From Promethearchaeota archaeon (GTDB lineage Archaea > Asgardarchaeota > Lokiarchaeia > Sigyniarchaeales > SOKP01): a stretch of DNA of 25,561 nucleotides. The stretch covers positions 1 to 25,561 of the forward strand of contig JAFGOA010000184.1 of assembly GCA_016926735.1 (NCBI GenBank), read 5' to 3'. Each line of letters opens with the position of its first letter. Within the stretch, counting starts at the first letter, position 1. Under the pieces are notes generated by a model. It was not told where the DNA came from. It was given only the letters and a program-made list of their open reading frames with translations, and searched no databases. This document shows positions 1,212 through 25,304 of this stretch, in pieces. A program made the translations under genes and the position numbers.

Positions 1212-1250
1212 TTTCACTTCATGAAGATGTCATGAATAAAGATCGTGAAA
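1212..1250 (+). repeat. 39-bp inter-gene repeat, copy R1 (core AGATG)
   Basis: tttcacttcatgaagatgtcatgaataaagatcgtgaaa read directly. Strand label is the arbitrary consensus orientation. Confidence 0.97.
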
Positions 1251-1354
1251 CAAACTCAATTTAGAATAAAAATATAATAATAGGATATTTTAATGTTTCA
1301 AGTATAATTTTTATATTTAGAATAGAAAAGAAAGAGGAATATAAATTATTATTT

Positions 1355-1759
1355 TCATTTTTTTTTAAGAAATTCATCGTATTCTTTAAGATATTCGCTA
1401 TATTTCTTCTGTTTTTCTTCCTTTCTTTTTTTTATATTCAATATTACTTTAATAATTTTTTCTTTTGAAAGAATTATTGCTATCATAAGAATTATCAGAA
1501 AAAATATACTAAATCCAAATAATAGATTATATATTATTATTTCATTTATGGGTATATGATTAATATATATTATATCTCCCGGAGAAGCATATACAAATGA
1601 TGCTATAACTAAGAAAACAAGCAAAATTATAGCGCTAGCAGCAATTAAAATGTATATAAATAGTCTAAGATTTCTTTGAGAAAATAAGTTTTTTTGATTT
1701 GTAGTTTTGTTTGAATTTAACCTTTCTTCTTCTCTTTTATAATAATTATAATCTTCCAT
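1355..1759 (-). CDS. Hypothetical membrane protein (2 predicted TM helices, charged termini)
   Basis: 134-aa ORF with two hydrophobic stretches and an AGGAGGG SD-like motif upstream. Sole gene between R1 and R2. Confidence 0.7.
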   Translation of the reverse strand: MEDYNYYKREEERLNSNKTTNQKNLFSQRNLRLFIYILIAASAIILLVFLVIASFVYASPGDIIYINHIPINEIIIYNLLFGFSIFFLIILMIAIILSKEKIIKVILNIKKRKEEKQKKYSEYLKEYDEFLKKK

Positions 1760-1842
1760 TTTTAAAATTACCCTCCTTCAACTTATATATATTATAAATA
1801 GATATTTAAATATTTTCAATATATCAATTATAAAAAACGCTT

Positions 1843-1881
1843 TATCACTTCATGAAGATATCATGAATATAGATCGTGAAA
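1843..1881 (+). repeat. 39-bp inter-gene repeat, copy R2 (core AGATA)
   Basis: tatcacttcatgaagatatcatgaatatagatcgtgaaa. Confidence 0.95.
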
Positions 1882-1903
1882 TGTAATGAAATTACATAAG
1901 AAA

Positions 1904-1937
1904 GTGAACTACACACGATCTAAAGGTTGTGGCTTCC
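1904..1937. mobile_element. Remnant IS200/IS605-family end hairpin
   Basis: gtgaactac-acacgatc-taaa-ggttgtg-gcttcc matches the GT(C/G)AACTAC...TAAA...GGCTT subterminal hairpin pattern of IS200/IS605 ends. No transposase or tnpB nearby. Confidence 0.55.
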
Positions 1938-1970
1938 TAAAAATGCACAATCGCTTTTCCTAAGGGATAA

Positions 1971-2252
1971 AAAAAATTATTAGCTAATAAACCATTACCT
2001 AAAACGATCGATGAAAATGATTTAAATAATATAAAAACGTTCAAAAATACCCTAAAAAATCTCAGCAAATAATTAAAAGATTTTTATAATAATTGGATAA
2101 AAAATTATAAAGATGATCCCAAATCCTTTAATGAGGAAATGATTCGACTACAAGAAACCATGCAAATGGAAGTAGGTCAATTTGAATCAATTGCTAATAT
2201 TATGAAAGTTGCTCATGATCAGGCAAAAAGTATTATCAATAATATACGATAG
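1971..2252 (+). pseudogene. 5'-truncated gene fragment ending in an SctF/needle-like helix (…LQETMQMEVGQFESIANIMKVAHDQAKSIINNIR)
   Basis: Manual translation gives a protein-like frame from about 1971 to TAG 2250-2252, with one internal TAA at 2070-2072 and no start codon upstream of that stop. Confidence 0.55.
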
Positions 2253-2394
2253 ATTTTGGTTTAAAAAAATTATTCTTATTTTTTAAATTAATTGATAATT
2301 TTCTTTTCAATTTAGATATGTTTTAAATCTTTTTGTTACTATGATCCTATATATTTTTCAAATCTCCATAATTTAAATTAATCTAAGTTTACCT

Positions 2395-2964
2395 CTAAGC
2401 TTTTATTAATTCTACAAATGAATTTGCAAACTTTTCAATTTCATTCCAATTTATAAAATCATATGTTCGATTTTTCTCTAATTTCAAGGGTACGTTAAAT
2501 TCTTGAATGGTCTTATTCATCTCATGAATAAGGAGTTTTTTATACAAATATCCAAATTGAGAATTCTTGGTAAGATCAAAATATGATCCAAAAATTCCAT
2601 ATATATCTGGAACAAGGTTATATTCTTTAATTAGAGATTTTATATAATTTTCTTCAGCAAAATCATAAATTAATTTATCGCATCCTGCTCCACAACTGAT
2701 AAAAAGCCCCAATTTTAAATTTTTTAATTTAATATTGTTATTTTTTACAAAATACCTAATTTCTTTTTTCCATTTATTGGCATAAATTCCAGAACCAATA
2801 ATTATTCCATCAAATATAGCTAAATCAGGAACATTTTTAATAGATTCTTTATCTAATTTATGTAAAATTGTCATTATATTATTTGATTCTAATATATTTG
2901 CAATATAATTTGCAATTTTAAGAGTTATTCCTGTTTTTGTTCCAAATATAATTAAAACCTTCAT
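2395..2964 (-). CDS. Flavodoxin-domain protein (HemG/Flavodoxin_5-like)
   Basis: MKVLIIFGTKTGITLKIA FMN-binding loop, DGIIIGSGIY, and C-terminal YDFINWNEIEKFA. ATG at 2964 preferred over GTG 2973. Confidence 0.85.
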   Translation of the reverse strand: MKVLIIFGTKTGITLKIANYIANILESNNIMTILHKLDKESIKNVPDLAIFDGIIIGSGIYANKWKKEIRYFVKNNNIKLKNLKLGLFISCGAGCDKLIYDFAEENYIKSLIKEYNLVPDIYGIFGSYFDLTKNSQFGYLYKKLLIHEMNKTIQEFNVPLKLEKNRTYDFINWNEIEKFANSFVELIKA

Positions 2965-3340
2965 AGAATTCACAATTTTAGATTTTTCTTCAGTTTTTTT
3001 TATTTAAGTTTTATTTTTTTGTATATATTTTACTATGATTGTTAAAAAAAGATTAACATTTCTTACAATGATCAATACTTTTATAAATTTCTGATGGTAG
3101 TTCGTTAAAAACTCAAATAAAATCTTAATTTATTAAAATAGTTTTCTATTATTCTTATTATGATAATTTTCTCCAGTCTATCTAAAAATTATAAATAAAG
3201 CTTTATTATTAACTATTTTATAAGATTTTAATTGTGATGATTATAAGGATAATAATAATATAATTGATTAAATTTATTTTGATTTAGAATGATCTAATAT
3301 TTTAAAAGTTCTATTAAATTTAGTAAAGTATGGCTAACTT

Positions 3341-3381: not shown

Positions 3382-3388
3382 TAAATTT

Positions 3389-3862
3389 TTATTTATTTAA
3401 TTTTCTTAATTCATTTAATAGGATTCTATTTTCAGGAATATCATGCATATTATCACTATAATAGGTATAAGTTATTATTCCATGCTTATCAATAATTAAT
3501 AATCCAGACATTCTCCCCATTTTCAATATTTTGATTTCTTGGTTTAGGTTTCTTACAATTTTTTTATTTTCATCATAAAATATTGGAAATATCCTTGAAT
3601 ATTTTTGATGCATTTTCAAAGCATTTTTTTTATTATCGGCTAAAATTGCGTATATATATGTATTGAGTTTTTTAAATATCGGGAAGTCTTTTCTTAAATA
3701 AACTAAATGCCTTTTACAGTATGGTCAATATATACTCCTTAAAAGAATCACTATAATATTCTGTTTATTTTGAAAATCTTTTATATTTATTACATCTCCA
3801 TCCGTATTCGGTAATTCAAATTCTTGTATTTTTGTTCCTACTAATTTAAATTTATCTTTCAT
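3389..3862 (-). CDS. AhpC/TSA peroxiredoxin-like redoxin, probable selenoprotein (UxxC)
   Basis: ATG 3862 gives MKDKFKLVGTKIQEFELPNTDGDVINIKDFQNKQNIIVILLRSIY-[TGA 3727-3725]-PYCKRHL..., continuing in frame into the listed 3389..3619 ORF (157 aa total). The TGA occupies the first Cys position of the thioredoxin-fold CxxC. Confidence 0.85.
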
Positions 3863-3946: not shown

Positions 3947-3985
3947 ATTCACTTCATGAACCTTTCATGAATAAAGATCATGAAT
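3947..3985 (+). repeat. 39-bp inter-gene repeat, copy R3 (core ACCTT)
   Basis: attcacttcatgaacctttcatgaataaagatcatgaat. Confidence 0.95.
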
Positions 3986-4109
3986 CTCCCTATAGAATTG
4001 TGAATTTATGACATTTATAGAATAAATTTTAGTACATAAAATTATTTAATTTGATATAAACATACCATAATTCTACAGTAAGTTGAATTCTTTAAAAAAA
4101 ATTATTATT

Positions 4110-5087
4110 ATGATAGAATTATTTCTATGGATTGGATTATTTGTTGGAGGATATTTAGTTATTTATTTTTCAGCAGATTTATTTATTGACAATCTAAAGG
4201 AAATCTGTTATATTTCTGGAATATCTCCATTTATTATTGGACTTATTGTTGTAGGAATCGATCCTGAAGAATCAATTGCTTCCTTCACCGCATCTTTAAA
4301 TGATCTCTCATACATTGCAGTAGGAAATGTGATTGGAAATTCTATCTTTTCTCTTAGTTTATGTTTTGCTCTTCCAATGTTTTTCTATAAAATTAACTTA
4401 AAAACAATTTCAAATTATTATTTCTGGATTTTATATCTGAGCATGGGTATTATGTTATTAAGCTTTATTCTCAATTATGGATTATTTATTATGGGTTTGA
4501 TCGCTTTAATTGTTTATTTTGTTTATTTAATCAAGAATTTAAGGTACGCTAAAAAAGGAGAAAAGTCAGATATTTTTGATATTGAGAATATCTTAGAAGA
4601 AATTGTAGATATTAGAGAACAAAAAAGTGTATCAAAAATAAAAAAAATTTTCCTTACTATCTTCGGATTGATATTTATTGTCTTAGGAGGAGAATTACTT
4701 ATTTTATCAACAGAACAAATTATCACTTTAACTAAAATTTCAGAAACATTCTTTGGGTTGATTATCATTGCATTTATAACGAGTGTTGAAGAATTAACTC
4801 TTATTTTTAAATCCATTAAAAAGAAGATTTATGAAATTGGTTTAGGGGGAATGATTGGAAAAATCATATGGAATGTATCCTTTACGTTTGGCATAAGTGG
4901 AATTATAGCGTTATCTATAAAGTATACTTTTATTCTTATAATAAATTGGTTTATTTTGTTAAGTTTAATTCTATTTTTCCATGTTAAAATCAGAAGAAAA
5001 AATAACTTTGGAAAAAAAGATGCAATTATCCTTATAATTGTTCTCATTTTCTTTATCTTCATTAATATATATATTCTTTTAAAATGA
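4110..5087 (+). CDS. Na+/Ca2+ exchanger family (CaCA, YrbG-like) antiporter
   Basis: Two-repeat multi-TM protein with alpha-repeat motifs GIDPEE...GNVIGNS and ITSVEE...GGMIGK. ATG 4110 (track start is TTG 4083). Confidence 0.85.
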   Translation: MIELFLWIGLFVGGYLVIYFSADLFIDNLKEICYISGISPFIIGLIVVGIDPEESIASFTASLNDLSYIAVGNVIGNSIFSLSLCFALPMFFYKINLKTISNYYFWILYLSMGIMLLSFILNYGLFIMGLIALIVYFVYLIKNLRYAKKGEKSDIFDIENILEEIVDIREQKSVSKIKKIFLTIFGLIFIVLGGELLILSTEQIITLTKISETFFGLIIIAFITSVEELTLIFKSIKKKIYEIGLGGMIGKIIWNVSFTFGISGIIALSIKYTFILIINWFILLSLILFFHVKIRRKNNFGKKDAIILIIVLIFFIFINIYILLK

Positions 5088-5199: not shown

Positions 5200-5238
5200 T
5201 TTCACTTCATGATCCTTTCATGAATAACGATTGTAAAA
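5200..5238 (+). repeat. 39-bp inter-gene repeat, copy R4 (core TCCTT, right end decayed)
   Basis: tttcacttcatgatcctttcatgaataacgattgtaaaa. Confidence 0.9.
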
Positions 5239-5270: not shown

Positions 5271-5885
5271 TTAAATCGAAGTAAGAATGATTATTATGCC
5301 GATAACGATAAATAAAATTATAGATATTAATTTTATATAAAATTTTGGAATTTTTTCTGTGATAATTGCTCCAAAAAAAACCCCTATCCAAGTTAGACTT
5401 ATTAAAGCGAAAAAAGCACCAAACCAAACTTCAAAAGGGAGATTATACATTAAAGCAAGGGTGATTGTTAAAATTTGTGATTTATCTCCAAGTTCCATTA
5501 TAAGAATTGATAAAAAACTACATAGATATGGATGATTGTTTAACTTTAATCCTCTAGAACGGTTATCATAACAAATTAATTCTTTTTTTTCTTTTCTTTT
5601 TTCCATATATATTGATTTCAATGATTTTGTTTCAAAGAGACCGATTATAATAAATACTATTCCGGAAATAATAGAAATTATAAAAATAGGAACGTATTGA
5701 GTAATTAATGTCCCAAAAATTAAGCTAAGAGATAATATAAAAGCAAATCCTAATGAAGCACCTATTCCTATCTTATATGATTTCTTATGTTCTAAAGAAA
5801 GATTGAATATAATAAGTTGCGTTTTATCTCCAAGTTCGCCTAAAAATAAAAGACCAAAAACATTAAAAAAAATAAAGAAATCCAT
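5271..5885 (-). CDS. TMEM165/GDT1 (UPF0016) family Ca2+/Mn2+ transporter
   Basis: Two copies of the family motif, ELGDKTQ and ELGDKSQ, each followed by TM helices. Confidence 0.92.
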   Translation of the reverse strand: MDFFIFFNVFGLLFLGELGDKTQLIIFNLSLEHKKSYKIGIGASLGFAFILSLSLIFGTLITQYVPIFIISIISGIVFIIIGLFETKSLKSIYMEKRKEKKELICYDNRSRGLKLNNHPYLCSFLSILIMELGDKSQILTITLALMYNLPFEVWFGAFFALISLTWIGVFFGAIITEKIPKFYIKLISIILFIVIGIIIILTSI

Positions 5886-5948: not shown

Positions 5949-5987
5949 TTCCGCTTCATGAAGATTTTATTAAAATGGATCGAGAAA
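5949..5987 (+). repeat. 39-bp inter-gene repeat, degenerate copy R5 (core AGATT)
   Basis: ttccgcttcatgaagattttattaaaatggatcgagaaa aligns ungapped to the consensus and lies in the expected intergenic slot. Confidence 0.75.
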
Positions 5988-6071: not shown

Positions 6072-6743
6072 TCACCAAATATATGGAATTAAACGATAAT
6101 GTGTTTTTTTCATATATTCTTTATATCCTTCAAGATCATTTTCTAACATTTTATCTTCAAAATATGTTCTTAAAATGAATGTTATAATAAATAATCCCGC
6201 AGGTATTAAAGTATAGAGTGAACCAAGTGCTAAACAATGACATATTAAGAATATAATAATTCCTGTATACATAGGATGACGAACATATTTATATGGACCA
6301 GAGATAATTACTTTATGTTCTTCCTGAACTTCAATACTTTTTATAAGGTAAGTATTTTCTCTTAATACTAAGAGATAAATAATTGACGATATTATTACTC
6401 CAATAAATCCAATAATTCTAATAAATATTGGTAAATATGACCATTGAAATCGTATAACATCGAGTCCTGGTATGACGAAAGACGGAATCATTAATATAAA
6501 CAAGATAAGAACAATGATTTTATCCCATTTTTGTTTAGGTTTTGGATTCTCTAATCTTTTTTTTAGTAATTCAGGATTCTTTTTATTTAAATAATATAAA
6601 ACGATAAAGATAAATATTCCCCAAATTATTAAATAAATCCATGCTTCAATCCAAAATATTGTTCCTGCTGGTATAAAAAGACTTGAGGCAATAAATAGTA
6701 AAAAAATTCCAACTTTTACTATAGATTTTGCATTTAATAACAT
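6072..6743 (-). CDS. Isoprenylcysteine carboxyl methyltransferase (ICMT/PEMT)-family membrane protein
   Basis: Multi-TM ORF with GPYKYVRHPMY and FEDKML...GYKEYMKKTHYRLIPYIW motifs. Confidence 0.88.
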   Translation of the reverse strand: MLLNAKSIVKVGIFLLFIASSLFIPAGTIFWIEAWIYLIIWGIFIFIVLYYLNKKNPELLKKRLENPKPKQKWDKIIVLILFILMIPSFVIPGLDVIRFQWSYLPIFIRIIGFIGVIISSIIYLLVLRENTYLIKSIEVQEEHKVIISGPYKYVRHPMYTGIIIFLICHCLALGSLYTLIPAGLFIITFILRTYFEDKMLENDLEGYKEYMKKTHYRLIPYIW

Positions 6744-7041: not shown

Positions 7042-7080
7042 TTTCACTTAATGAAAACTTCATGAATAAAGATCGTGAAA
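7042..7080 (+). repeat. 39-bp inter-gene repeat, copy R6 (core AAACT)
   Basis: tttcacttaatgaaaacttcatgaataaagatcgtgaaa. Confidence 0.95.
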
Positions 7081-7084
7081 AATG

Positions 7085-7470
7085 TGATGAAATAGTATTA
7101 ATAATTCCTGTTAAATTTTTTCTATTGTAGTTTTTGTTTCATCGTAAGCCTTTTCAGGAGATAAATAATGAAAAGGGCCATAAGATAATGAGATACCTGC
7201 ATTTGCTATTAATATTCGAATAGAACCAAAGGCATCTACTGTTTTTTTAACGATATTTTTTAGACTAAAAGGATCTGTTACATCACATACGTGTCCAATT
7301 ATGCAATCTCCAAATTCTTTTTTAAAATCACTAAGTGTTTTATTAACATTCTTTTCATTACGAGAACATATTGCTACTTTGCATCCTTTTTTAAGAAATA
7401 TCTCTGCTAACTTTTTACCAATTCCACTTGTAGAACCTATTATTAAAGCAGTTTCATTTATTAATTTCAT
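7085..7470 (-). pseudogene. Short-chain dehydrogenase/reductase, N-terminal half only
   Basis: GSTSGIG, CDVTD and ANAG motifs. The frame stops at 7111, but a one-base shift in the A-run at about 7116-7121 continues NLTGIINTISS up to repeat R6. The catalytic YxxxK half is absent. Confidence 0.85.
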
Positions 7471-7795
7471 AGAGTTAAATTATAATTTAATAATTATATT
7501 AATTCAATAGATATTAGTTTTTTATAAAAATTATCTTAATTATTTTATAAGTTTGAAATTATTTTAATATATGAGGAAGAAGAAGAATCTTATCCAGAGT
7601 AAAAAATGGAGATTTCATTTCTGAATTTAAAAGTACAAAATATTGATACGATTTTTCATATATATATTTCCCTATTCAGAGTAAGGTAAGTTATTAAATA
7701 AATAATAAATAAGAGTAAATTAATCTTAAAAAATAAAGAATCTTAAGGTTATTATTGTTTCTAATTATTTCCTCCGTTTTGCATATTCTCCTAGG

Positions 7796-7860
7796 ACAAA
7801 TAGGAAAACCTTAAATATTATTTCATATAGAATAAATTTAGTACAAATTATCCTATTTGT
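7796..7860 (+). promoter_or_regulatory. Putative promoter with 10-bp inverted operator pair upstream of the GH5 gene
   Basis: ACAAATAGGA (7796-7805) and TCCTATTTGT (7851-7860) bracket a BRE/TATA-like GAAAACCTTAAATA. Confidence 0.4.
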
Positions 7861-7896
7861 ATAAAAATAATTACTTTTAGATTAAAGTGGTTTAAA

Positions 7897-10227
7897 TTGA
7901 AATATACCAAACAAATATATAAAGTAAAATCATTAAGAAGGATATTATTAATTGTATTCTTTATTCTTATGCTTATTATTCCACTATATATTGGAGGAAT
8001 TTTAACTAATTCTGTGAATCATAATAAAAATAATTTCTCCATAGATCTACAAGAAAATGGCGAAAATTTGGCACCACATGCAAGCTTTCGAGTCAGTCCA
8101 AATGGAGTAAAAACAGGAGGTATTGTTTCATGTTATGCTCTTACTTCATATGATCTAGATGGTAAAATTACAACATATAATTGGGATTTTGGAGATGGAA
8201 CAACTGGTTCTGGAAGTGAAGTATATCATCAATATTCATTAACGGGTAAATATATTATTACTTTAACTGTAATAGATGATGGAGGATTAACAGATATATA
8301 TTCACAAAGTGTAAGTGTTGATGTTGCAGGTTCACCTGAGCAAGTAGATACAGCCAAATTCAATTGGGAAGATGGTACTACAGAAGGATTTGATTTTAAT
8401 ACATGGAATGTCCCATCAGGAACTTCCGGTTCAGTTGAGAATGATATAAATATAGCTTATTCTGGAACTCATTCATTAAAATGTAATGTAGAGACTGCAA
8501 ATGTTAGTACAGTTGATTTTAGAATAGATTCTACAATACCTCTTATAGAGCCTGGTTCTACGGTTTTATTTAGATATTGGATTCCTTCAGGAACACCAAT
8601 TTCAATAGTTCAGCCATATATAATGCCACACACATCAGATTGGTCTGAAAGTCGATGGTTTAGTGATTGGACACCTATTGATGGTGTTACAACAAATAGT
8701 TGGAATGAAGGATTGATTATACTTTCTGCTGATATAGATCCAACATGGGGTGTTCAAATAGGTATTCAAATTGAAATAGATGGTGCATCATCATTTTCAT
8801 TTAATATTGATTCAATTGATTGGTTTAATCCTTCAATTCCAAAAGCTTCTTTTGAATATTCTGTGATGAGACCTAATCCTGGAGAATTAATTAATTTTGA
8901 TGCTTTAAATTCCTTAGATCAATATTTAGTATCTTCTGATCCTGATGGAATAATAACTAGTTTTGAGTGGGATTTTGGAGATGGAACAATAGATAGTGGA
9001 TCAGTTCAAACTCATTCATATTCTAGTGCAGGTAAATATCCCGTAACATTAACTATTACAGACAACGAGGGAAATATTCATGGTATAACTCGTGTGATCT
9101 GGTGCGGTATAGAAGAACGTCCTTTTGCTCCCACATTACAAATACAAGATGCTCAAATTGTTGATGCTGATGGTAGACCTGTTTCTTTTAAGGGAGTAGC
9201 AATAGTAGACGATCTAACATATACAGAGGCAGATTTTGATTACTTAAAATATGAATGGAAGATGGATGCAATACGACTCCCTCTTATTATAGAAAGATGG
9301 TACTATGCAACAGCAACGGAGAGAGAAAATTACCTTGCAACATATGATAAATATCTACAATGGACATTTGATCGTGGAATGTATGTCTCGTTTGATCCTT
9401 GGCATGAAAGTGGACAAGGAGATGGTGAATTAATACTTTTTAATGATATAAAAGATGCCTTTCATATTGCGGCTCAACGTTATGGACAATGGACACATAT
9501 GATATGGGAAATCGTTAATGAACCTCATAAAGCAGATTGGGCAACATGGGCACCAATGGCAGAAGAATTAATTGATATTGTTAGATCATATAATCCTGCT
9601 TCGACAGCATGTGTCGTTCCGGGAGTTCATTGGGCTCAGGATTTTGATGTAAGAAATCGCCCAATAAATAGACCTAATGTTGGATATTCTGTTCATCCTT
9701 ATCCTCATGTTTATATGGTTGGAGATACATGGACATATGAATCATGGGATCAAGGATTTGGATATATTGTAAATGAAGGTTATGGGCCAATAATCAATAC
9801 TGAATGGTCATATCCTTTATTTGAGGAAGGAAATCGAGAATATGGTGAATTAATTCTATCCTATATGGAAGAAAGAAACATAGGATTCTTAGGGTGGATA
9901 TATGGATCACCTGAAAGCTGGGGATCAATGTCTCGTGATCTTAATGTCCGAGGAGATTGTCAGCAATTATGGTGGGAGTACTTAAATGGTATTTGGTCGC
10001 CTGAATCATCTCCACCTGATTATGAGATTGGAGATGTAAACCATGATCAACAAATTACAATTGTAGATGCATTATTAATATCTCAATACGAAGTTGGTTT
10101 TAATCCTTCTCCATTTTATCCTGAACAAGCAGATGTAAATATGGATGGTATCATCAATATTATCGATGCATTACTTATTGCACAATTTACTGTTGGTCTA
10201 ATTCCTTCTTTACCGCCTCCAACCTGA
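7897..10227 (+). CDS. Secreted/anchored GH5 glycoside hydrolase: PKD - CBM-like - PKD - GH5 - type I dockerin
   Basis: N-terminal TM segment, two PKD motifs (WDFGDGT), GH5 acid/base WEIVNEP and nucleophile NTEW, and duplicated dockerin loops GDVNHDQQITIVDALLI and ADVNMDGIINIIDALLI. Confidence 0.88.
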   Translation: MKYTKQIYKVKSLRRILLIVFFILMLIIPLYIGGILTNSVNHNKNNFSIDLQENGENLAPHASFRVSPNGVKTGGIVSCYALTSYDLDGKITTYNWDFGDGTTGSGSEVYHQYSLTGKYIITLTVIDDGGLTDIYSQSVSVDVAGSPEQVDTAKFNWEDGTTEGFDFNTWNVPSGTSGSVENDINIAYSGTHSLKCNVETANVSTVDFRIDSTIPLIEPGSTVLFRYWIPSGTPISIVQPYIMPHTSDWSESRWFSDWTPIDGVTTNSWNEGLIILSADIDPTWGVQIGIQIEIDGASSFSFNIDSIDWFNPSIPKASFEYSVMRPNPGELINFDALNSLDQYLVSSDPDGIITSFEWDFGDGTIDSGSVQTHSYSSAGKYPVTLTITDNEGNIHGITRVIWCGIEERPFAPTLQIQDAQIVDADGRPVSFKGVAIVDDLTYTEADFDYLKYEWKMDAIRLPLIIERWYYATATERENYLATYDKYLQWTFDRGMYVSFDPWHESGQGDGELILFNDIKDAFHIAAQRYGQWTHMIWEIVNEPHKADWATWAPMAEELIDIVRSYNPASTACVVPGVHWAQDFDVRNRPINRPNVGYSVHPYPHVYMVGDTWTYESWDQGFGYIVNEGYGPIINTEWSYPLFEEGNREYGELILSYMEERNIGFLGWIYGSPESWGSMSRDLNVRGDCQQLWWEYLNGIWSPESSPPDYEIGDVNHDQQITIVDALLISQYEVGFNPSPFYPEQADVNMDGIINIIDALLIAQFTVGLIPSLPPPT

Positions 10228-15954: not shown

Positions 15955-16042
15955 TGGGTTTCCTTATTTTTATTGATTTTGATTTATTTTATTTCTATTA
16001 AATGTAAAAATAACATTGTTATATGAAGGAATTTTATGAGTA

Positions 16043-16076
16043 TATAAAGGTTTAAGGTGTACTTTTCGAACTATTT
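16043..16076 (-). promoter_or_regulatory. Shared 34-bp promoter/operator motif P, copy 1 (upstream of S8 protease)
   Basis: Plus strand tataaaggtttaaggtgtacttttcgaactattt. The minus strand ends in TATA-like TTTATA. Confidence 0.7.
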
Positions 16077-16370
16077 TTGACTATTTTTGGATTGGTTAAA
16101 GTAAATTATTACTTAATTGATATAACCAATCTGTTTTATATCACATGAATAGTGCTCGGAATAAATTAATTATTTTTCTGCAATATTTTTAAATTTCATC
16201 CTATATCACACAGAAACATGTGATTCAGTAATTAATTTGATGAAAATTAGATGAAAAATATAATAAATCTCATTATAAAGTAGATAAATATTATTAATTT
16301 TTTCAATTAATTCAATTTAGGTATCATGCAGAGGATATTTAAGTATATATGAATCTTCATAAAACACATG

Positions 16371-16409
16371 TTTCACGATCTTTATTCATGAAAGGGTCAT
16401 GAAGTGAAA
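16371..16409 (-). repeat. 39-bp inter-gene repeat, copy R7 (inverted; core CCCTT)
   Basis: tttcacgatctttattcatgaaagggtcatgaagtgaaa. Confidence 0.97.
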
Positions 16410-16571: not shown

Positions 16572-17225
16572 ATGAAATTAAATAAAAAATCCATAAAACA
16601 CAAGAGAAAATTACAAATCACATTTGTAGTTATAACTCTCTTGATACCCTCATTAGCTTTTGTATTTACACACCCCAATCTTAATACATTAAATAATAAT
16701 GAAAAACTATTAGATTTAAAAACATCTGCAAATTCAGAATCAGGATATTCCGTGGCTATTAAACAGTATCCTTTATCTGGATTATTTCTAGTTGCTCGAG
16801 TGATATGGATAAATTTAGATCCATTTGCGGCCACTGTCTTTACTGAAGCTACAGAACTCGCAATAGGTGCTATAGTAGAGAAAATTTGTGAAGTAGCTGT
16901 GATAGCAATATTTGCTGCTGCAGGGATTTCTATTCCTGCATCAGTGTTATATATACCCTTACTTCTAATAAGTTTAGCTCTTGCAGTTGCTCTAGCTTTT
17001 TTTTGGAATGCACATATGAATGCGAGAGGCGGAGATATTAAATTCGGAATTGGAGTACAAACATTCATAATTCCGACGTTATATTTTTATTTAGATAACT
17101 CTCGTGACTCTGTGGATAACTATGATCTAATGATCCCTTATATGGACACTATTCTCTATCCTAATGCAGTATTATTATCAAATTTTATCGGATACTTACC
17201 AACAAATACTTGGATAGGAGTGTAA
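16572..17225 (+). CDS. Hypothetical secreted/membrane protein with long hydrophobic Ala/Ile-rich core
   Basis: 217-aa ORF with a basic plus hydrophobic N-terminus, TATA-like TTTATAAATA upstream and a hairpin/T-tract downstream. Confidence 0.7.
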   Translation: MKLNKKSIKHKRKLQITFVVITLLIPSLAFVFTHPNLNTLNNNEKLLDLKTSANSESGYSVAIKQYPLSGLFLVARVIWINLDPFAATVFTEATELAIGAIVEKICEVAVIAIFAAAGISIPASVLYIPLLLISLALAVALAFFWNAHMNARGGDIKFGIGVQTFIIPTLYFYLDNSRDSVDNYDLMIPYMDTILYPNAVLLSNFIGYLPTNTWIGV

Positions 17226-17444: not shown

Positions 17445-17483
17445 TTTCACGATCTTTATTCATGACATCTTCATGAAGTGAAA
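17445..17483 (-). repeat. 39-bp inter-gene repeat, copy R8 (core AGATG)
   Basis: tttcacgatctttattcatgacatcttcatgaagtgaaa, the exact reverse complement of R1. Confidence 0.97.
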
Positions 17484-17679: not shown

Positions 17680-18639
17680 TTATTCAAAAATAACTAATAT
17701 GAAAGAATCTTGGTAAATTAATTCATTTTGCAGACTATAAATTCTAATTTCAACATTAAAGAGACCACTTAATGTTAGTGGAAATGTTAAAACAATTAGA
17801 GAATTACATTTTTTCCTTATTATCATATTATGATTAAGATCTAATTCGTAATATCCTTCAAATTCTGTAGGGTTAAGAATATTCCATGCTATAAGTCCTA
17901 CGTTTTGGTTACTATTAAAAAGAATGAATTTTTTCTCAAACCAATTAATCTCTTTTCCTGTTGTGATTTTATTGATTATTATATCAGAAGACATTTTAAG
18001 TTGAAAAGTCATTATTTTCTCATCATCAACAAATTGATAAAAACTAAATTCTTTCATTATACCTATCTCTTGATCAAACCTAATCTCAAAATATCCATCT
18101 ATAATCAAATCATCATCTTCATTTGTGATAAAATTTGCTAACACTAGACCAAATTCATTCTCCAATGGACTAAGGAATAGTGGGCCAAATCCAAAAGCCA
18201 TATTATACATTACTTCTTCTATATATTTATTTATTGGAATTGAAGCATTGATAGGTATAGGACATAATAATATTGGGGGTCTGGAGTCCCAATCAGGATT
18301 TTTACGCAAATCGGTTGTTATACTCTTATTTATGAAAAAATTTCCACTCCATTCAAAATCCCATTTATAATCTATTTCTTGAATTTTTTCAAGTGTAATT
18401 TTATATATTCTTCCTTTTAAAAAGTTTTCCCTCATTATACGAAAATCACCCCACATTGTATTTTCCTGTAATGATCCATTTATAGTATTGGTTGTGACTT
18501 CATAGTAAAATGTGTCTCCTTCTTTGATTCCAAGATAATATTCAGTATCAGAAGCACCTAGACTCATTGTAGGAAAACTAGAAATTGCGATCACTAATAT
18601 CATTAACCCTACAAATGCAATTTTATTATTTTTTTTCAT
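17680..18639 (-). CDS. Hypothetical secreted protein
   Basis: 319-aa ORF with a signal-peptide-like N-terminus followed by YLGIKEGDTFYYEV. Preceded by motif P. Confidence 0.75.
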   Translation of the reverse strand: MKKNNKIAFVGLMILVIAISSFPTMSLGASDTEYYLGIKEGDTFYYEVTTNTINGSLQENTMWGDFRIMRENFLKGRIYKITLEKIQEIDYKWDFEWSGNFFINKSITTDLRKNPDWDSRPPILLCPIPINASIPINKYIEEVMYNMAFGFGPLFLSPLENEFGLVLANFITNEDDDLIIDGYFEIRFDQEIGIMKEFSFYQFVDDEKIMTFQLKMSSDIIINKITTGKEINWFEKKFILFNSNQNVGLIAWNILNPTEFEGYYELDLNHNMIIRKKCNSLIVLTFPLTLSGLFNVEIRIYSLQNELIYQDSFILVIFE

Positions 18640-18778: not shown

Positions 18779-18817
18779 TTTCACGATCTTTATTCATGAA
18801 TGGTTCATGAAATGAAA
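18779..18817 (-). repeat. 39-bp inter-gene repeat, copy R9 (core ACCAT)
   Basis: tttcacgatctttattcatgaatggttcatgaaatgaaa. Confidence 0.96.
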
Positions 18818-18924: not shown

Positions 18925-19875
18925 GTGATAAATCTGAATAAAATTAAATTAAAAAGAAAGAAATATTTTACTTTAGGAGCATTGATATTAATATCTGTTT
19001 TTCTTTTTGAAAGTAGCTTATCTTTAGGATATACTCAGAGATTTCTTTGGCAAAGATATGAAAATAATTTATATTCTATGTTATACGGAGGTCTTGCAAG
19101 AAAAGAAATATCAAAAGTACAAGCACAAGGGGATGTTGTTTATGATCCTTCTGGAACAGGAAGTGAATTTTATGGGCTTTATTTGTATAATAAACAAGAA
19201 TCTTATGAGTGGATTGCGTGTCATATGGAGAGATTTATCAAAGTACATATTTATATTTCTGTATTAAGGAGAGATCAATATAGGAATTATTTTACAGGAT
19301 ATTATTCTGATACGACTTCATGGCGTGCACCTATCCAAGGTTTATTTGCATTCACAGGTGATACTGATGATATGATCTTTACTGATAATTCCCAATATTC
19401 ATGGAATTGGAATATACAAACAAGTGCTACAACAGAATATTTTGGAATGCAATTACAATTAAGTGATGGTGATTGTGTTATTGGTTCTGGAATACCCAAT
19501 GCGAATACCTATGGAGAGTCTGAGGGGGAATATAGATATATGGGATATTGTAGTTTTTTTAAAGGATTTAATCTTTTTCAAAGTGTTATAATAGATGCAA
19601 GTGCTTTAATAAAATTACGTTTAGATAATTCACTTGCTAAAAGTTATGCAAATGGTAAATATTGGGATTACTATTATGGTTGGGAAAGAATAACCTATTT
19701 ACAAATTAAATTTAAAATAGTTTTTGAGTTTTGTAACGTTCATCCACTGAGTACAGCGGGTCCTCCTCAATCATATACTCACATAATTGGTGATAATTCT
19801 GTTCCCTCAACTTCAGGATGGTCTGGTACAGATAATTATATAATTTCTTTTAAACCTGGAAATTCTCCTCTTTAA
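18925..19875 (+). CDS. Hypothetical secreted protein (Tyr/Gly/Ser-rich, beta-rich)
   Basis: 316-aa ORF with a basic plus hydrophobic N-terminus and a T-tract right after the stop. Confidence 0.75.
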   Translation: MINLNKIKLKRKKYFTLGALILISVFLFESSLSLGYTQRFLWQRYENNLYSMLYGGLARKEISKVQAQGDVVYDPSGTGSEFYGLYLYNKQESYEWIACHMERFIKVHIYISVLRRDQYRNYFTGYYSDTTSWRAPIQGLFAFTGDTDDMIFTDNSQYSWNWNIQTSATTEYFGMQLQLSDGDCVIGSGIPNANTYGESEGEYRYMGYCSFFKGFNLFQSVIIDASALIKLRLDNSLAKSYANGKYWDYYYGWERITYLQIKFKIVFEFCNVHPLSTAGPPQSYTHIIGDNSVPSTSGWSGTDNYIISFKPGNSPL

Positions 19876-19898: not shown

Positions 19899-19937
19899 AT
19901 TCACGATCTTTATTCATGATATCTTCATGAAATGAAA
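19899..19937 (-). repeat. 39-bp inter-gene repeat, copy R10 (core AGATA)
   Basis: attcacgatctttattcatgatatcttcatgaaatgaaa. Confidence 0.96.
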
Positions 19938-19972: not shown

Positions 19973-20614
19973 TTATTTCAAATCTAATCCAATTTTTTCT
20001 ATAATTTTAGAGTTTTTTGGGATAAAAACTTCTTCTTTTGGAGTTATTAAAGAATTATATTCTTGATTTAATGCTAATTTTCTTTGAGTATTTACAAAAT
20101 CAGTCAGATCAATAATCTTCAGAATGGCATTTGAAGCATATTCTTTAAGAAGATTACCACGAATCCCAATTTGAATTGCTCTTCTTTCTAATGGATTACC
20201 TATTGGATCATGATCCGGATCCCATTGTAATCTAATGTGTGACTTATTTAATGCTTCTTTCCAAAGTTCTTTATTTGGATATAATACTTCAATATATGTG
20301 GAAGGTACTGCTTCTTCCAATATTCGTTCAAAAAAGGATCTTTTTATAGAAATAGCTAAAATTCGATTTTGTCCTTTTTTAGTAGCCCATCCTGACCGAT
20401 ACATCATCCATAAAAAATTTGGTTTAATCCAACTCATTCTGGTAAATTTAAAACTTCCTCCAAAATAACCATTGTTTAAAGCAAAATTAGCAATATAGTG
20501 ATTATAAGCTTGGTATACGATTATTGATTTATTATTATATTGTGCTAAAATATATCGACCTTTAGAAGGCCAATTAATCTTTTGAATAGAGTATTTCTCA
20601 TAGATCAATTCCAA
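19973..20614 (-). CDS. DUF4291 family protein
   Basis: Family-typical motifs IVYQAY, RMSWIKPNFLWMMYRSGWA and QWDPDHD...RRAIQIGI. Confidence 0.85.
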   Translation of the reverse strand: MELIYEKYSIQKINWPSKGRYILAQYNNKSIIVYQAYNHYIANFALNNGYFGGSFKFTRMSWIKPNFLWMMYRSGWATKKGQNRILAISIKRSFFERILEEAVPSTYIEVLYPNKELWKEALNKSHIRLQWDPDHDPIGNPLERRAIQIGIRGNLLKEYASNAILKIIDLTDFVNTQRKLALNQEYNSLITPKEEVFIPKNSKIIEKIGLDLK

Positions 20615-20713: not shown

Positions 20714-20752
20714 TTTCACGATCTTTATTCATGATATCTTCATGAAGTGAAA
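20714..20752 (-). repeat. 39-bp inter-gene repeat, copy R11 (core AGATA)
   Basis: tttcacgatctttattcatgatatcttcatgaagtgaaa. Confidence 0.97.
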
Positions 20753-20886
20753 TAAAGACTTCTATAATACACTATAGTTTTCTTTAGCTACTTTAAGTTT
20801 CCATAAAATTTGTATAAAATATATAAGATAATAAAAAATTAATAGAGAGGGGTAATATATATTTTTTAAAGATATTATTTTATTTG

Positions 20887-21096
20887 ATGACAGATATTAT
20901 GGCAACTGAAAAAGAAAATGTTATAGAAATGATAAAGGAGCTTCCTGAAGATGCAACAATAGATGATATTATATATCATCTTTATGTAAAAAAAAAAATT
21001 CAAATAGGTATTGATCAACTAGATCAAGGTAAAGGAATCCCTCATGAGAAAGTGATGGAAAATGCTAAAAAGAGATTAGAACAATGGTTAAAATAG
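20887..21096 (+). CDS. Putative type II antitoxin
   Basis: About 69 aa, LPEDATIDDIIYHLYVKKKIQIGIDQLDQGKGIPHEKV pattern. Overlaps the start of the downstream RelE/ParE gene. Confidence 0.8.
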   Translation: MTDIMATEKENVIEMIKELPEDATIDDIIYHLYVKKKIQIGIDQLDQGKGIPHEKVMENAKKRLEQWLK

Positions 21097-21368
21097 AATG
21101 GTCACCCACCGCTCAGCATGATTTAACCGATATCATTGATTATATTGCTCAAGACTCTCTTGAATATGCACTTATTTTTTATGAAGAAGTTCGCGAGAAG
21201 GTTCAAAATTTAATCCAATTTCCAAAAATAGGAAGAAAGATTCCTGAACTTGATGATTCAGCTATTAGAGAATTGATCCTAAAAAGTTATCGAATTATTT
21301 ATAGAGTTCATATGGAAAAAATAGAAATTATTCGTATAATTCATGGTTCTAAAATCCTAAAATTTTAA
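21084..21368 (+). CDS. RelE/ParE-family type II toxin
   Basis: 94 aa with WSPTAQHDLTDIIDYIAQDS, FPKIGRKIPE and YRIIYR...IIRIIHG. Confidence 0.9.
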   Translation: MVKIEWSPTAQHDLTDIIDYIAQDSLEYALIFYEEVREKVQNLIQFPKIGRKIPELDDSAIRELILKSYRIIYRVHMEKIEIIRIIHGSKILKF

Positions 21369-21490: not shown

Positions 21491-21529
21491 TTTCACGATC
21501 TTTATTCATGGCATCTTCATGAAGTGAAA
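21491..21529 (-). repeat. 39-bp inter-gene repeat, copy R12 (core AGATG)
   Basis: tttcacgatctttattcatggcatcttcatgaagtgaaa. Confidence 0.97.
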
Positions 21530-21661: not shown

Positions 21662-22405
21662 TTAGATAAATTCAATTATAAGTACATCATCTCTATTCCA
21701 AAGTGAGGGGCCAAATTTAACTCTATTTTTATCTTCTTTAGTAACACCAATTGTGTCTCCATCTTTCACAACCGGACCATTTTTAAGTAAATAATCTGTG
21801 AAATGATAAAGAGAAAATAATATATCAAATGGATTTTTTCTTGTATTTTGAATTTCAATTTCCCTATGTCCAAAAGTATCCATTCCGGTTGTTAATATAT
21901 TGTGTGTATCATCCTTATTTTTTTCTATTCTATATTCAATCCATAAACTGACGGGTAATAAATCTTTTTCAAGACATTCTTTTCCTATTTTAATAAGGTA
22001 TTCTGGTGAATTTACAACTGTTCCACTTCCCCAATATATGCCTTTAATTTTTATCAATTCCGTAATAGATATGATTATTTTGGTAATAATAATTGATTGT
22101 TCTAAAATAAAGTAATTTATATCACTTCCTATATATGAAACTATATAATGACCTGTATGATTTTTTAATTCTTTAGTTGCTTTTGACCAATAATAGGCAG
22201 TAGCACAAGGGCCTTCTAAATCACTCCATGGTATTGGTTTAGGAAGATCCAAAATGAAGAAAGCATTATTATTATCTAAAAAAAGCATTATTATTCCTTT
22301 ATCATTATCAATAGAATTAATTTTTGGAAAGGATATCCAATCGTTCTCTATTTGTTTTTTTAATTTTTTTATATTTATCTTTTGATTATTATCAACCATA
22401 ATCAT
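21662..22405 (-). CDS. DUF4261-domain protein
   Basis: C-terminal TTGMDTFGHREIEI...YLLKNGPVVKDGDTIG motif. Start codon uncertain. Confidence 0.8.
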   Translation of the reverse strand: MIMVDNNQKINIKKLKKQIENDWISFPKINSIDNDKGIIMLFLDNNNAFFILDLPKPIPWSDLEGPCATAYYWSKATKELKNHTGHYIVSYIGSDINYFILEQSIIITKIIISITELIKIKGIYWGSGTVVNSPEYLIKIGKECLEKDLLPVSLWIEYRIEKNKDDTHNILTTGMDTFGHREIEIQNTRKNPFDILFSLYHFTDYLLKNGPVVKDGDTIGVTKEDKNRVKFGPSLWNRDDVLIIEFI

Positions 22406-22555: not shown

Positions 22556-22594
22556 TTTCACGATCTTTATTCATGAAAGGTTCATGAAGTAAAA
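22556..22594 (-). repeat. 39-bp inter-gene repeat, copy R13 (core ACCTT)
   Basis: tttcacgatctttattcatgaaaggttcatgaagtaaaa. Confidence 0.97.
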
Positions 22595-22617: not shown

Positions 22618-23160
22618 TTACCATAAGAAGAACTTCGTTAGAATAAATGCAATTGTTAAATATATCATCCACGCAAATATGCTATATATAACGAGAGATA
22701 TAATCTTCATACTTAATTTTGTATTTTCAAATGTACTAAACCGATTAATAAGTACTAGACCTCCACAGAATAGACCTGCCCCAACAGCTCCACCTAAAAA
22801 GAGAGGTAATAATGGAATCATAAAGATATACATCCATTTTTTTGGAGGAACAATAAGCCTAGTCTCCATTTCTTGCTCTTTTTCTTCAATTTCATATTCC
22901 CATTTATTAGTTTTCTTAATAGGAATAAAGGTAAAAATCGTTTTTTTTCCATCAACACCTATTTTCATTTTTGATTTTTCTCTAGTTTTAAATTTTGGAA
23001 TCTTTACTTTTGCAAGTTGATCATCAAGATATAGACGATATTTAGTGGTTAATTTGCTATTATCAAATTCAAATTTGATCTTATGGTTATTATAATCAAA
23101 TTCAACTAATTCTTTTTTTGAACCTGTTTTTTCAAGATAATTTAAAAAATCTTTATCCAT
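22618..23160 (-). CDS. Hypothetical membrane protein (soluble N-terminus, C-terminal TM helices with GGAVGAG)
   Basis: ATG 23160 (MDKDFLNYLE) with AGGTG upstream is preferred over the track's TTG 23259, which abuts motif P. Confidence 0.72.
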   Translation of the reverse strand: MDKDFLNYLEKTGSKKELVEFDYNNHKIKFEFDNSKLTTKYRLYLDDQLAKVKIPKFKTREKSKMKIGVDGKKTIFTFIPIKKTNKWEYEIEEKEQEMETRLIVPPKKWMYIFMIPLLPLFLGGAVGAGLFCGGLVLINRFSTFENTKLSMKIISLVIYSIFAWMIYLTIAFILTKFFLW

Positions 23161-23272
23161 TTTTAATACACCTTTTTGATTTGATTTCTGTCTATTTTTT
23201 ATTACATAGCAAATATTTATTTGAATATAATCATTTGATATGAAATAATTATATTGCAAAATTTGAATAATA

Positions 23273-23306: not shown

Positions 23307-23431
23307 ACTTCCTATAGTTAAGGATATATTTTTAGTAGAAGACTAATTTTAAATATTTGGAAATATAGAGATTGCTATTGAACAATTGATAAAAATAACA
23401 TTTCTATTAATTATTAAAAATATTAAAGTTG

Positions 23432-23470
23432 TTTCACGATCTTTATTCATTAAAGGGTCATGAAGTGAAA
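23432..23470 (-). repeat. 39-bp inter-gene repeat, copy R14 (core CCCTT)
   Basis: tttcacgatctttattcattaaagggtcatgaagtgaaa. Confidence 0.96.
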
Positions 23471-23526
23471 GAGAAAGAATTGATTTTTAATAATCAAAGA
23501 AAAATGACAGATTAAGATTGAAAATT

Positions 23527-24129
23527 TCACCTGTATATTCTTTTCATATATATTAAACCATTATCTAACCATTTTATATACCATTCTAGAAATCTTATCC
23601 GTCTTTTATCTTTTCTACTTTTCTTAAGTGGAGTAATTCCTTTATTTTCAACCCTATAATCTCTCCATATAGTTCCCTTTTCTTTTCCTGTAACAATTAA
23701 TAACATCCATTTACAGCACCCCATATCACTAATAGGAATGCTTCCATTAATCCATTTTGAATTATAATAATTATCTAAAAACCATTCCTCATTATCATCA
23801 TTTGGTTTTGGAGGATTTAAATTCCATTTTGTACTATGTGGAAAAGATTTTGTAAGATCGCCAATTTCAAAATCAATTTCTCTTTCTAAAATCTTATTTA
23901 TAGGTATAATTCCATAATTTGGTCCAGCACCTCCATTACCAATCTGTTGTAGAAATGTTCGATACTCTTCAGGTAATTTTATCTTATATTTTTCTTCAAT
24001 TTTCTCAATTTGATGTGCTGTTAATGGAGGATTTAGATTATATTTATGTCCATTTGCTCCAAATAATTTAAATGAATGATCTATTTCTCTTAACTTATTT
24101 AATCTAATTTTTATATTTTCAAACTCCAT
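23527..24129 (-). CDS. SMI1/KNR4 (SUKH) family protein, putative immunity protein
   Basis: IEKIEEKYKIKLPEEYRTFLQQIGNGGAGPNYGI, ISDMGC...LIVTGKEKGTIW and FLEWYIKWLD. Confidence 0.88.
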   Translation of the reverse strand: MEFENIKIRLNKLREIDHSFKLFGANGHKYNLNPPLTAHQIEKIEEKYKIKLPEEYRTFLQQIGNGGAGPNYGIIPINKILEREIDFEIGDLTKSFPHSTKWNLNPPKPNDDNEEWFLDNYYNSKWINGSIPISDMGCCKWMLLIVTGKEKGTIWRDYRVENKGITPLKKSRKDKRRIRFLEWYIKWLDNGLIYMKRIYR

Positions 24130-24199
24130 AATAATATAAATAATAATTTTAGGATTAGTGATATTTTATAATTAAAACTATATATATGTTCTTTACTGT

Positions 24200-24238
24200 T
24201 CTCACGATCTGTATTCATGAAAGGTTCATGAAGTGAAA
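24200..24238 (-). repeat. 39-bp inter-gene repeat, copy R15 (core ACCTT)
   Basis: tctcacgatctgtattcatgaaaggttcatgaagtgaaa. Confidence 0.95.
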
Positions 24239-24271
24239 TAAAGACTTTTAGTAGATATTTTTACTAAAAAT

Positions 24272-24964
24272 CTAATATTCAAATTTTTTAGCATTAGATC
24301 TTCGACATTTATCAATTAAAGCATTACTATCCAGAATATCAATGAATCTAATTTCTCCAATAGTTTTAAATGCTTGTTTAATAAATTCATATACTAAAAT
24401 CTGTTTTTCTATAAAAGCAATCCATATCTTTTTGAAAATATTTTTCCAAATAATTCCTAATTCTTGTTCTAACCAAGATTCTATCTCTTTTTTTTCGATA
24501 TCTGAAGCAATAATCTTATTAAGACAAAATTCAACATAACGATATTTTACTAAAATATATTTTTCCTCAGGTACTTCAAGGTCGTCATACTTGAGGAAAT
24601 TTTCTATAAAAGTATAATGACATAATTTAACAATTTTATCGATAATCGTTTTATTTAATATGATTAACTCATGCTCTAAGTTAATTTCTAAGATAGGAAT
24701 TATCATAGTTTTAGAAAGATGAACTAATACCTCTTTTGATATATTATGATTAATTTCTTTATTAGCTTTAAAAAAAGTATCTATTATTTTTCCAATAACG
24801 TCATCGTAAGTTTTATCTTTTGATAATTGGAATTTTAACCATGACTATTTGATATCAAATGGATCTTCTCCTTCTGATATTTTTATCTGATGGAAAATCC
24901 AATCTATAGTGTTTGATATATTTTGAATTATTAATTCTTCATATTTTGGATTATATCTTTTCAT
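24272..24964 (-). pseudogene. Hypothetical protein (about 230 codons) interrupted by one in-frame TAG
   Basis: ATG 24964 (MKRYNPKYEELIIQ...) is in frame with the listed 24272..24706 ORF. The only interruption is TAG at 24847-24845. Confidence 0.65.
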
Positions 24965-25129
24965 TTTAAAATCTACTCAATGATAAAACTCTTATAATTA
25001 AATTAGATATTTTAATAAATAGCTTAAATCTTGACTATTATTAAAATTGTTTAAAAAATCCTTAAATAAAAGAAGAAATGAAAATTGATTAATTTTAATT
25101 TTTGATTAGAATATATAATAATACAATCA

Positions 25130-25168
25130 TTTCACGATCTTTATTCATGAAAGGTTCATGAAGTGAAA
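25130..25168 (-). repeat. 39-bp inter-gene repeat, copy R16 (core ACCTT)
   Basis: tttcacgatctttattcatgaaaggttcatgaagtgaaa. Confidence 0.97.
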
Positions 25169-25265
25169 ATGAAGACTAAGAGATGATTTTTAAAAAATTG
25201 TTTTGCCTTCTTTTTCTAAAAGATTTTTATTTTTTTCTATTTTCTCATTTGCTACTTTTTTAAAA

Positions 25266-25304
25266 GTATAGGATCTTTATTCATGAAAGGTTCATGAAGT
25301 GAAA
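25266..25304 (-). repeat. Inter-gene repeat, copy R17 (first 6 bp replaced; core ACCTT)
   Basis: (gtatag)gatctttattcatgaaaggttcatgaagtgaaa, with 33 bp identical to R16. Confidence 0.93.

Follow-up and report, generated by a model that had tools for sequence, protein, structure and literature searches.

Two rows of a 39-bp site and their cargo

The window analysed here is the whole of the 25,561-bp contig JAFGOA010000184.1 (C1), from the metagenome-assembled genome (MAG) of a Promethearchaeota archaeon of the class Lokiarchaeia (3.88 Mb, 26% GC, 238 contigs). We refer to this genome as G000 and to three congeneric species as G001, G002 and G003; C and L label contigs and loci. The window carries 17 copies of a 39-bp element, hereafter the site, which divide it into gene cassettes that appear to exchange neighbours. 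A preliminary description made from the sequence alone had claimed these 17 copies and 16 gap lengths between them, all of which we recovered, with six copies on the minus strand (1212-7042) and 11 on the plus strand (16371-25266). The plus-strand consensus is TTTCAC GATCTTTA TTCATGA N5 TCATGAA GTGAAA. The element had been called a 39-bp palindrome. There is indeed an inner palindrome, but the site as a whole is not a simple one, as its arms differ by an 8-bp insert, and informative bases reach ~6 bp beyond the 39 bp on each side. Thirteen of the 16 intervals hold a single gene or one toxin-antitoxin (TA) pair, as originally counted; the three exceptions are the 1843-3947 interval, with two genes, the 9.3-kb middle and an empty 97-bp gap. 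The constant orientation of the repeats over long runs, also remarked on previously, extends to all four genomes (60 adjacent pairs in the same orientation, one in opposite orientation).

The left row starts at the site at 7042..7080 and runs on the minus strand through 5949..5987 (a degenerate copy), 5200..5238, 3947..3985 and 1843..1881 to 1212..1250, which adjoins a resident pfkB gene. Its cargo comprises a PEMT/ICMT-like methyltransferase (6072..6743, minus), a GDT1 cation/proton antiporter (5271..5885, minus), a Na/Ca exchanger (4083..5087, plus), an AhpC/TSA peroxiredoxin-like gene (3389..3862, minus), a flavodoxin-like protein (2395..2973, minus) and a 134-aa membrane protein with no family above cut-off (1355..1759, minus). 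The open reading frame (ORF) of the peroxiredoxin-like gene needs read-through of an in-frame TGA in a UxxC motif, and it probably encodes a selenoprotein. In the window this gene is part of a cassette; its counterparts in G001 and G003 have no site. Between the two rows, which point in opposite directions, lies the middle block (7081..16370, 30% GC), which holds the N-terminal part of a short-chain dehydrogenase (a 119-aa ORF at 7111-7470, minus, probably truncated), a GH5-PKD-dockerin protein (7897-10227, plus) and an S8 protease-dockerin protein (10852-15954, minus).

The right row starts at 16371..16409, preceded by a 213-bp non-coding segment (16158..16370, plus), and all of its sites are on the plus strand. 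Convergent genes flank those at 17445..17483, 19899..19937 and 21491..21529; the last of these is spanned, with zero differences, by a unitig from the run that is probably the source. The site scan further gave 18779..18817, 20714..20752, 22556..22594, 23432..23470, 24200..24238 and 25130..25168, which has the consensus sequence, and the row closes at 25266..25304 with a site lacking its first 6 bp, at the end of the 97-bp ORF-less cassette. The cargo of this row starts with three proteins of no assigned family, of 217 aa (16572..17225, plus), 319 aa (17680..18639, minus) and 316 aa (18925..19875, plus); the ESM Atlas returned no usable match for the latter two. There follow a DUF4291 protein (19973..20614, minus), an antitoxin-like ORF with a ParE toxin (20884..21368, plus), a DUF4261 protein (21662..22405, minus), a 213-aa protein found among 161 genomes of the class in G000 and G003 only (22618..23259, minus), an SMI1/KNR4 (SUKH) immunity-type protein (23527..24129, minus) and a 144-aa protein of no assigned family (24272..24706, minus). 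Among the best 80 loci with relatives of the DUF4291 protein, 79 are bacterial (46-59% identity) and one is from Helarchaeota. For most cassettes of the right row, the congeners contain no matching DNA. Site-bearing regions outside the window also hold GmrSD, AbiEii-type ATPases, glycoside hydrolases and repeat surface proteins.

A position weight matrix (PWM) scan of G000 found 43 sites on 10 of the 238 contigs, mostly in rows (17 on C1, six on C24, five on C15), and none in locally shuffled genomes. Because C15 overlaps C153 and C188 overlaps C167, some rows exceed the contig ends. The three congeners together add 62 sites, of which ~31 are in G002 (98% complete), and they also account for the exact matches to the site pattern in GTDB (Promethearchaeota bin106 and two uncultured archaea). 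More than one PWM match was found in only four of 161 Lokiarchaeia genomes, all of one genus, and the other 157 yielded no array. Lone pattern matches in other genera scored below 8 and were dismissed, and in other genera the site is absent from the region 3' of a SelB-like gene that anchors an array. The sites are thus clustered, restricted to a genus and absent from most intergenic regions, which answers the question of clustering or dispersal raised by the preliminary description.

Some genes beside sites of the left row bear on how rows arise. The pfkB and peroxiredoxin neighbours are resident genes, present without any site in the congeners, and the homology of the peroxiredoxin region to the site-free G003 locus ends at the outer edge of site 3947. 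Rows therefore appear, from these comparisons, to start next to ordinary resident genes. A ~200-bp non-coding header follows the site in several places (window 16410-16600; L109:3225-3430; L029:408-620; L052:5426-5625; 75-77% identical), and in several cases the cassettes that share it carry apparently different ORFs, which suggests gene replacement behind one leader. A ~30-bp promoter- or operator-like motif precedes several cassette genes (window 16046-16076, 18694-18724, 22501-22531 and 23276-23306); with 14 matches in G000, some on site-free contigs, it is not array-specific. Finally, window positions 1-87 are identical to C188:1-87, both contig starts; the assembly probably broke here at the end of an insertion sequence.

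Exchange of neighbours within the site

We compared the flanks of 103 sites in the four genomes. Among pairs of sites with both sides judgeable, 27 share one homologous flank, and none of the 27 shares both, which implies that cassettes switch neighbours inside the repeat. On G003 C234, for example, the counterpart of the 213-bp segment before window site 16371 (89% identical) is joined through a single site to the Na/Ca-exchanger cassette that in the window follows site 5200 (97.8% identical) and there has another upstream flank. The core of the junction site differs from those of both window sites. Within G002, each of two cassettes, one of 161 bp without an ORF and one with a TA pair, is found in two neighbourhoods, and cassettes common to different genomes retain their orientation relative to site polarity. 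The preliminary description had proposed a platform for gene capture and shuffling, as opposed to a motif spread uniformly through syntenic regions. Clustering, genus restriction and non-syntenic gene order across sites all speak for that proposal, and the breakpoints inside the repeat that it anticipated among relatives are these 27 one-flank pairs.

We then asked which parts of the site travel with which neighbour. The hexamer to the left of the site tracks the upstream cassette (1.27 versus 3.72 differences, p<0.001), positions 34-39 track the downstream cassette (p=0.002), and the 5-bp core between the inner boxes tracks neither flank (p=0.76 and 0.89). For the left arm itself we detected no tie to a flank, in a comparison of low power. 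Because the hexamer goes with the upstream side and positions 34-39 with the downstream side, these associations place the exchange points inside the site, bracketed rather than mapped to cut positions. The core alleles AAGGT (27 sites) and CATCT (25) dominate, and mosaics between them, such as AATCT and AATGT, occur. Core class tracked gene direction only weakly, with p=0.015 when the upstream gene is considered and 0.81 for the downstream one, and the idea was set aside. One site in G003 (C243, L441:446) is collapsed, with the left arm fused to the right arm and the core and one TCATGA box gone.

An assembly chimera is an unlikely source of these junctions: G003 was assembled with k=141, far longer than the repeat, and the G003 and G001 junctions recur at 99-100% in separate JGI contigs that probably stem from the same samples. 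In Logan contigs, the cassettes at 17445-18779 and 23432-24700 have a depth of ~4-11 against 16-20, which is a hint at most, since depth there cannot rank parts. Taken together, these comparisons of genomes leave us with little doubt that cassettes are shuffled at the 39-bp site.

A dif-type palindrome and the candidate recombinase

The ~6 biased bases beside the site led to a search that revealed a second element, TCGTGAAA-N6-TTTCACGA, a dif-type palindrome with an 11-bp arm consensus that occurs with the 6-bp spacer only. The dif sites of archaea and bacteria likewise have an 11-6-11 layout (PMC8371274). The palindrome is present in 29 of 41 Lokiarchaeia genomes (control 0), and 42 named Asgard genomes are among the 80 exact GTDB matches listed. 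It stands as dispersed singletons, intergenic in every gene arrangement; in G000 these are at C30:17087, C38:17055, C41:63273, C43:19620, C55:13648, C56:856, C85:24019, C91:73485, C156:631, C158:8941 and C222:22794. Allowing two mismatches, there are up to 19 matches per Asgard genome (control up to five), with many different centres. We also observed that the palindrome is multi-copy across Asgard lineages (Loki, Hermod, Hod, Thor and Wukong), with GC-rich central hexamers (L146-L185, L216-L334). Among 129 free-standing palindromes, 62 pairs have the same central hexamer against 4.4 expected, and only six of the hexamer-sharing pairs share a flank. Of 65 flank-sharing pairs of free palindromes, 58 share one side only, a count from divergent genomes without a synteny control.

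The ends and boxes of the 39-bp site resemble this palindrome. Site positions 1-11 fit its right arm, and the inner boxes match its left-arm consensus at nine of 11 positions. In seven of the 103 sites the full palindrome is retained, with a left arm at exactly the 6-bp spacing (0-3 at control offsets); among them are the sites that follow the SelB-like gene in G001 and in G002. The window's right row provides another in its first site: there an 11-6-11 palindrome (16354..16381, plus) overlaps site 16371, with a left arm matching at six of eight positions, the hexamer CACATG and a right arm formed by site positions 1-11. Moreover, 26 of 102 left hexamers are identical to the central hexamer of a free palindrome, against 0-1 of 102 for hexamers further out, a difference that is partly a GC effect.

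Three further palindrome-bearing loci are worth recording. A free palindrome at L174:1914-1960 and the SelB-like array anchor of G002 (L054:15700-15758) have 38 identical bases and the left arm in common, with different hexamers and right sides. On a 5.4-kb contig of Clostridium algoriphilum, three palindromes (L245:2040, 3026 and 3488) surround single small genes, possibly as pdif-like modules. A virus- or plasmid-like contig binned as a PVC bacterium (L277:352-1925) carries small archaeal-looking ORFs and ~4 palindrome copies, and may belong to an Asgard mobile element.

In eight Clostridia-type loci the palindrome lies at most ~500 bp upstream of a chromosomal xer gene, with AT-rich, dif-like centres (L222:38, L250:2435, L279:7544, L287:5608, L319:2417, L323:6909, L326:205 and L220:6797). 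These loci are mostly from close relatives and so are not independent; where neighbours are visible, they adjoin purB and lexA. From its position, this palindrome is likely the dif of clostridia, a group in which an earlier prediction of dif failed for two Clostridium species (PMC3025954). In Lokiarchaeia, one locus has the palindrome 1.1 kb from xerA, which among ~80 loci could be chance, and in 30 xerA loci no palindrome was found nearby apart from one match with three mismatches. Searches for look-alikes of E. coli, Bacillus and Pyrococcus dif gave no clear single site. On these sequence similarities, we consider the palindrome a candidate binding site of Asgard XerA and a candidate module boundary.

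In G000, XerA (C228:10207-11130) is the sole tyrosine recombinase, and no other is common to the four genomes (PF00589 and phrog_1 searches); among all G000 ORFs, a motif regular expression and a hidden Markov model of Lokiarchaeia XerA found no further one. The enzyme is intact, with its catalytic R-K-H-R-H-Y kept and a score above the NF040815 cut-off. It shares 32-34% overall identity with the clostridial enzyme, and several conserved helices look alike in the two. Profile searches with PF16795, PF07508 and PF01548 gave nothing above cut-off. As the preliminary description supposed, the recombinase is encoded outside the window. It had also raised and then discounted a likeness to Xer/pdif modules; given the dif-like outer ends and the shared XerA, the Xer link was under-rated.

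We therefore weighed the proposal that the rows are an integron-like cassette platform related to Xer and dif. A site-specific tyrosine recombinase is, to judge from the sequences, the probable catalyst. XerA is proposed as the enzyme because the boxes of the site are variants of a multi-copy Asgard dif-type arm and the four genomes have no other tyrosine recombinase in common, and both this assignment and the Xer/dif-related platform as a whole seem to us about evenly balanced between right and wrong. Under this proposal, the 39-bp element would be a polar recombination site linking cassettes head to tail. Each cassette would begin with one site's right arm, contain a gene that has its own promoter and may face either way, and end with the left arm of the site that follows. 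By exchanging strands within the site, a tyrosine recombinase acting in trans, most likely the host XerA, would excise and insert cassettes, so that rows gain, lose and reorder genes. More tentatively, rows may start, and genes be captured, at entry points formed by dif-like palindromes and by look-alikes of the site next to resident genes, and routine shuffling may proceed by staggered, mismatch-tolerant exchange around the 5-bp core or by two exchange points flanking it. Mismatch-tolerant exchange with a coupling sequence is known from Tn916 and CTnDOT. A bolder extension, which we offer as a speculation with somewhat less than an even chance, is that the housekeeping XerA of Asgard archaea is a general gene-exchange engine with dispersed dif-type sites as module boundaries, and that one genus evolved from this a compact, non-canonical site and integron-equivalent arrays without a dedicated integrase, capturing bacterial-type and resident archaeal genes.

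Several observations weigh against XerA acting in this way. Ninety-six of the 103 sites have no partner arm on the left, the inner palindrome has an odd spacing (5 or 7 bp), and there is no complete 11-6-11 within the 39 bp. Xer recombination requires matching central regions (PMC11705084). The left hexamers of consecutive window sites all differ, so classical Xer excision is impossible there and is not the routine route. The xerA gene is unlinked to any row and adjoins cdc6, and XerA is nearly universal in Lokiarchaeia while rows are confined to one genus; XerA of that genus has no special changes relative to array-less genera, so XerA alone leaves the genus restriction unexplained. The closed Lokiarchaeia genome G044 has XerA and no more palindromes than the control. 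All four array genomes are fragmented MAGs, and Logan contigs gave no excised circle and no read-level joint, the joints there resting on 20-42 repeat letters, which are uninformative.

We also considered that the same platform might be run by a dedicated tyrosine recombinase, divergent or transient (for example from a virus or plasmid), acting on the 7-5-7 core with a mismatch-tolerant overlap of 5 or 7 bp, the dif-like ends being accessory or relics. A genus-specific enzyme would fit the genus restriction. Few columns vary as little as those of the core boxes, and the 7-5-7 spacing resembles integron simple sites and the 7-bp overlaps of lambda-type enzymes. Moreover, G002 encodes a divergent 434-aa tyrosine-recombinase-like ORF (C112, L079:1072-2376) that barely matches PF00589 and has no NCBIfam match, which means that such genes can be missed. 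Yet this ORF is absent from G000, G001 and G003, a Pfam scan of 40 array-associated ORFs showed no recombinase among the 25 of 39 families listed, IMG/VR holds no exact match to the site pattern, and the site boxes have the same motif as the Xer-adjacent palindrome. We regard a dedicated enzyme as possible but doubtful.

Alternatively, repeats seeded by rare site-specific events could recombine anywhere in the 39 bp through RadA or slippage. Branch migration and patchy repair would be expected to leave mosaic and freely assorting cores of the kind described above, and the collapsed site on C243 would fit as well. This explanation is nonetheless improbable: the strong column-specific conservation and the half-matching, degenerate junctions beside resident genes point to recognition by a protein, and it gives no account of how new genes gain a site. 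A mismatched 39 bp is, besides, a poor substrate for homologous recombination.

A transcription-factor operator, a nucleoid-protein site or a repetitive extragenic palindrome (REP) or miniature inverted-repeat transposable element (MITE) piling up in variable regions would also be palindromic, intergenic and able to fold as a hairpin (z -2.2 to -3.2), and one half of the site resembles parS half-sites. Against an operator, the sites are placed regardless of gene direction, with 13 of 60 between convergent genes and the four gene arrangements about equally common. Stem changes are five compensatory to 182 one-sided. Against REP or MITE elements, G000 contains no free half-sites or larger parent element, the Y1/HUH transposase (PF01797) is absent from G000 and G001, and the confinement to 10 contigs is no genome-wide dispersal. 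Homology, moreover, breaks at the site and not randomly. We consider this group of explanations very unlikely.

Rows built by Cas1-type integration or from transposon-end junctions are scarcely credible: with one flanking base the site starts and ends like some archaeal CRISPR repeats, and 5 bp is a common length of target duplication, such as might separate abutted ends, but adjacent sites have the same core in only 12 of 60 cases, searches of G002 and G003 for cas1 came back empty, the CRISPR repeats of G000 are unrelated to the site, Rfam has no match to it and the spacers here are gene-sized instead of 30-45 bp (so that CRISPR is excluded, as anticipated). We found neither an element ending in this way nor an IS110 or large serine recombinase, and the three G000 resolvase loci examined (PF00239) are Tn3- and IS607-type without site boxes.

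Relation to integrons, pdif modules and other recombination systems

Asgard genomes contain large, fast-turning pools of bacterial-type genes (PMC8813620), for which viruses, transposons and attC-type integron cassettes are the described routes. The rows reported here add a separate, sequence-defined cassette platform with neighbour exchange shown, and a concrete candidate for the so-far undescribed, apparently multi-copy binding site of Asgard XerA. If XerA acts on the site, one chromosome-resolving recombinase would also run an analogue of the integron, which bears on the origin of integrons from Xer; and the 39-bp site and a single protein would then make a testable integration tool for archaea. 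Our literature search, of limited reach into subscription journals, found no description of the system, and the passages searched in work on integrons and tyrosine recombinases of archaea and on the mobile elements of Asgard genomes mention none either. The Asgard rows appear to be a form of recombinase-driven cassette array that has not been described before, with a putative enzyme.

Integrons and clusters of attC sites lacking integrases (CALINs), including those of archaea (Ghaly et al. 2022, PMC9668308), are similar in having tandem one-gene cassettes of one polarity, TA, DUF and SUKH cargo and reuse of cassettes between genomes; archaeal integrons are reported to be enriched in Asgard archaea. 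Here, in contrast, the site is shorter than attC and lacks the RYYYAAC and GTTRRRY boxes, as previously noted (no box pair within 120 bp at any of the 17 sites). It forms a hairpin without stem covariation and is conserved in sequence, unlike attC; the genes have their own promoters and point in either direction, and exchange occurs inside the site, not at the base of a hairpin. IntI was not found in G000, where the tyrosine recombinase scores 85.6 bits on TIGR02249 against a cut-off of 265; as CALINs need no IntI, its absence alone does not exclude that class.

The pdif or dif-module islands of Acinetobacter XerCD (PMC11705084, PMC12907356) are likewise rows of accessory and TA genes bounded by dif-type sequences, with modules in varying neighbourhoods, recurrent GC-rich central hexamers and a housekeeping recombinase in trans, which here is only proposed. 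Whereas pdif sites are full 28-bp 11-6-11 sequences made up of a XerC and a XerD arm, whose centres diverge and whose orientation is often inverted, the present site is a 39-bp polar joint with outward-facing half-sites, a free 5-bp core and a single XerA. Its adjacent copies are direct 60:1, without the alternation of orientation typical of pdif, as already noted in the preliminary description. Complete 11-6-11 boundaries are limited to the seven sites above, the remainder being half-sites. The arms may be related to the host Xer site: the ends match the Asgard palindrome, which is xer-adjacent in Clostridia and at the one Lokiarchaeia locus and is a candidate, rather than an established, dif in Lokiarchaeia.

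The single-recombinase systems XerA/dif, XerS/difSL and XerH/difH (PMC5357621, PMC8371274) share symmetric arms, a 6-bp centre and, in some lineages, a xer-adjacent site. Their dif, however, is single-copy and serves chromosome dimer resolution, whereas the Asgard palindrome is multi-copy and the 39-bp site is not 11-6-11. Elements of the Tn916 and CTnDOT type differ from the rows in that there is no conjugative element, integrase or xis here, and the non-autonomous cassettes target copies of the same site. Such elements nevertheless resemble the present site in having a short central segment inherited consistently from neither side. Altogether, the system works like an integron and is built of parts related to Xer and dif modules, while lacking defining features of both families.

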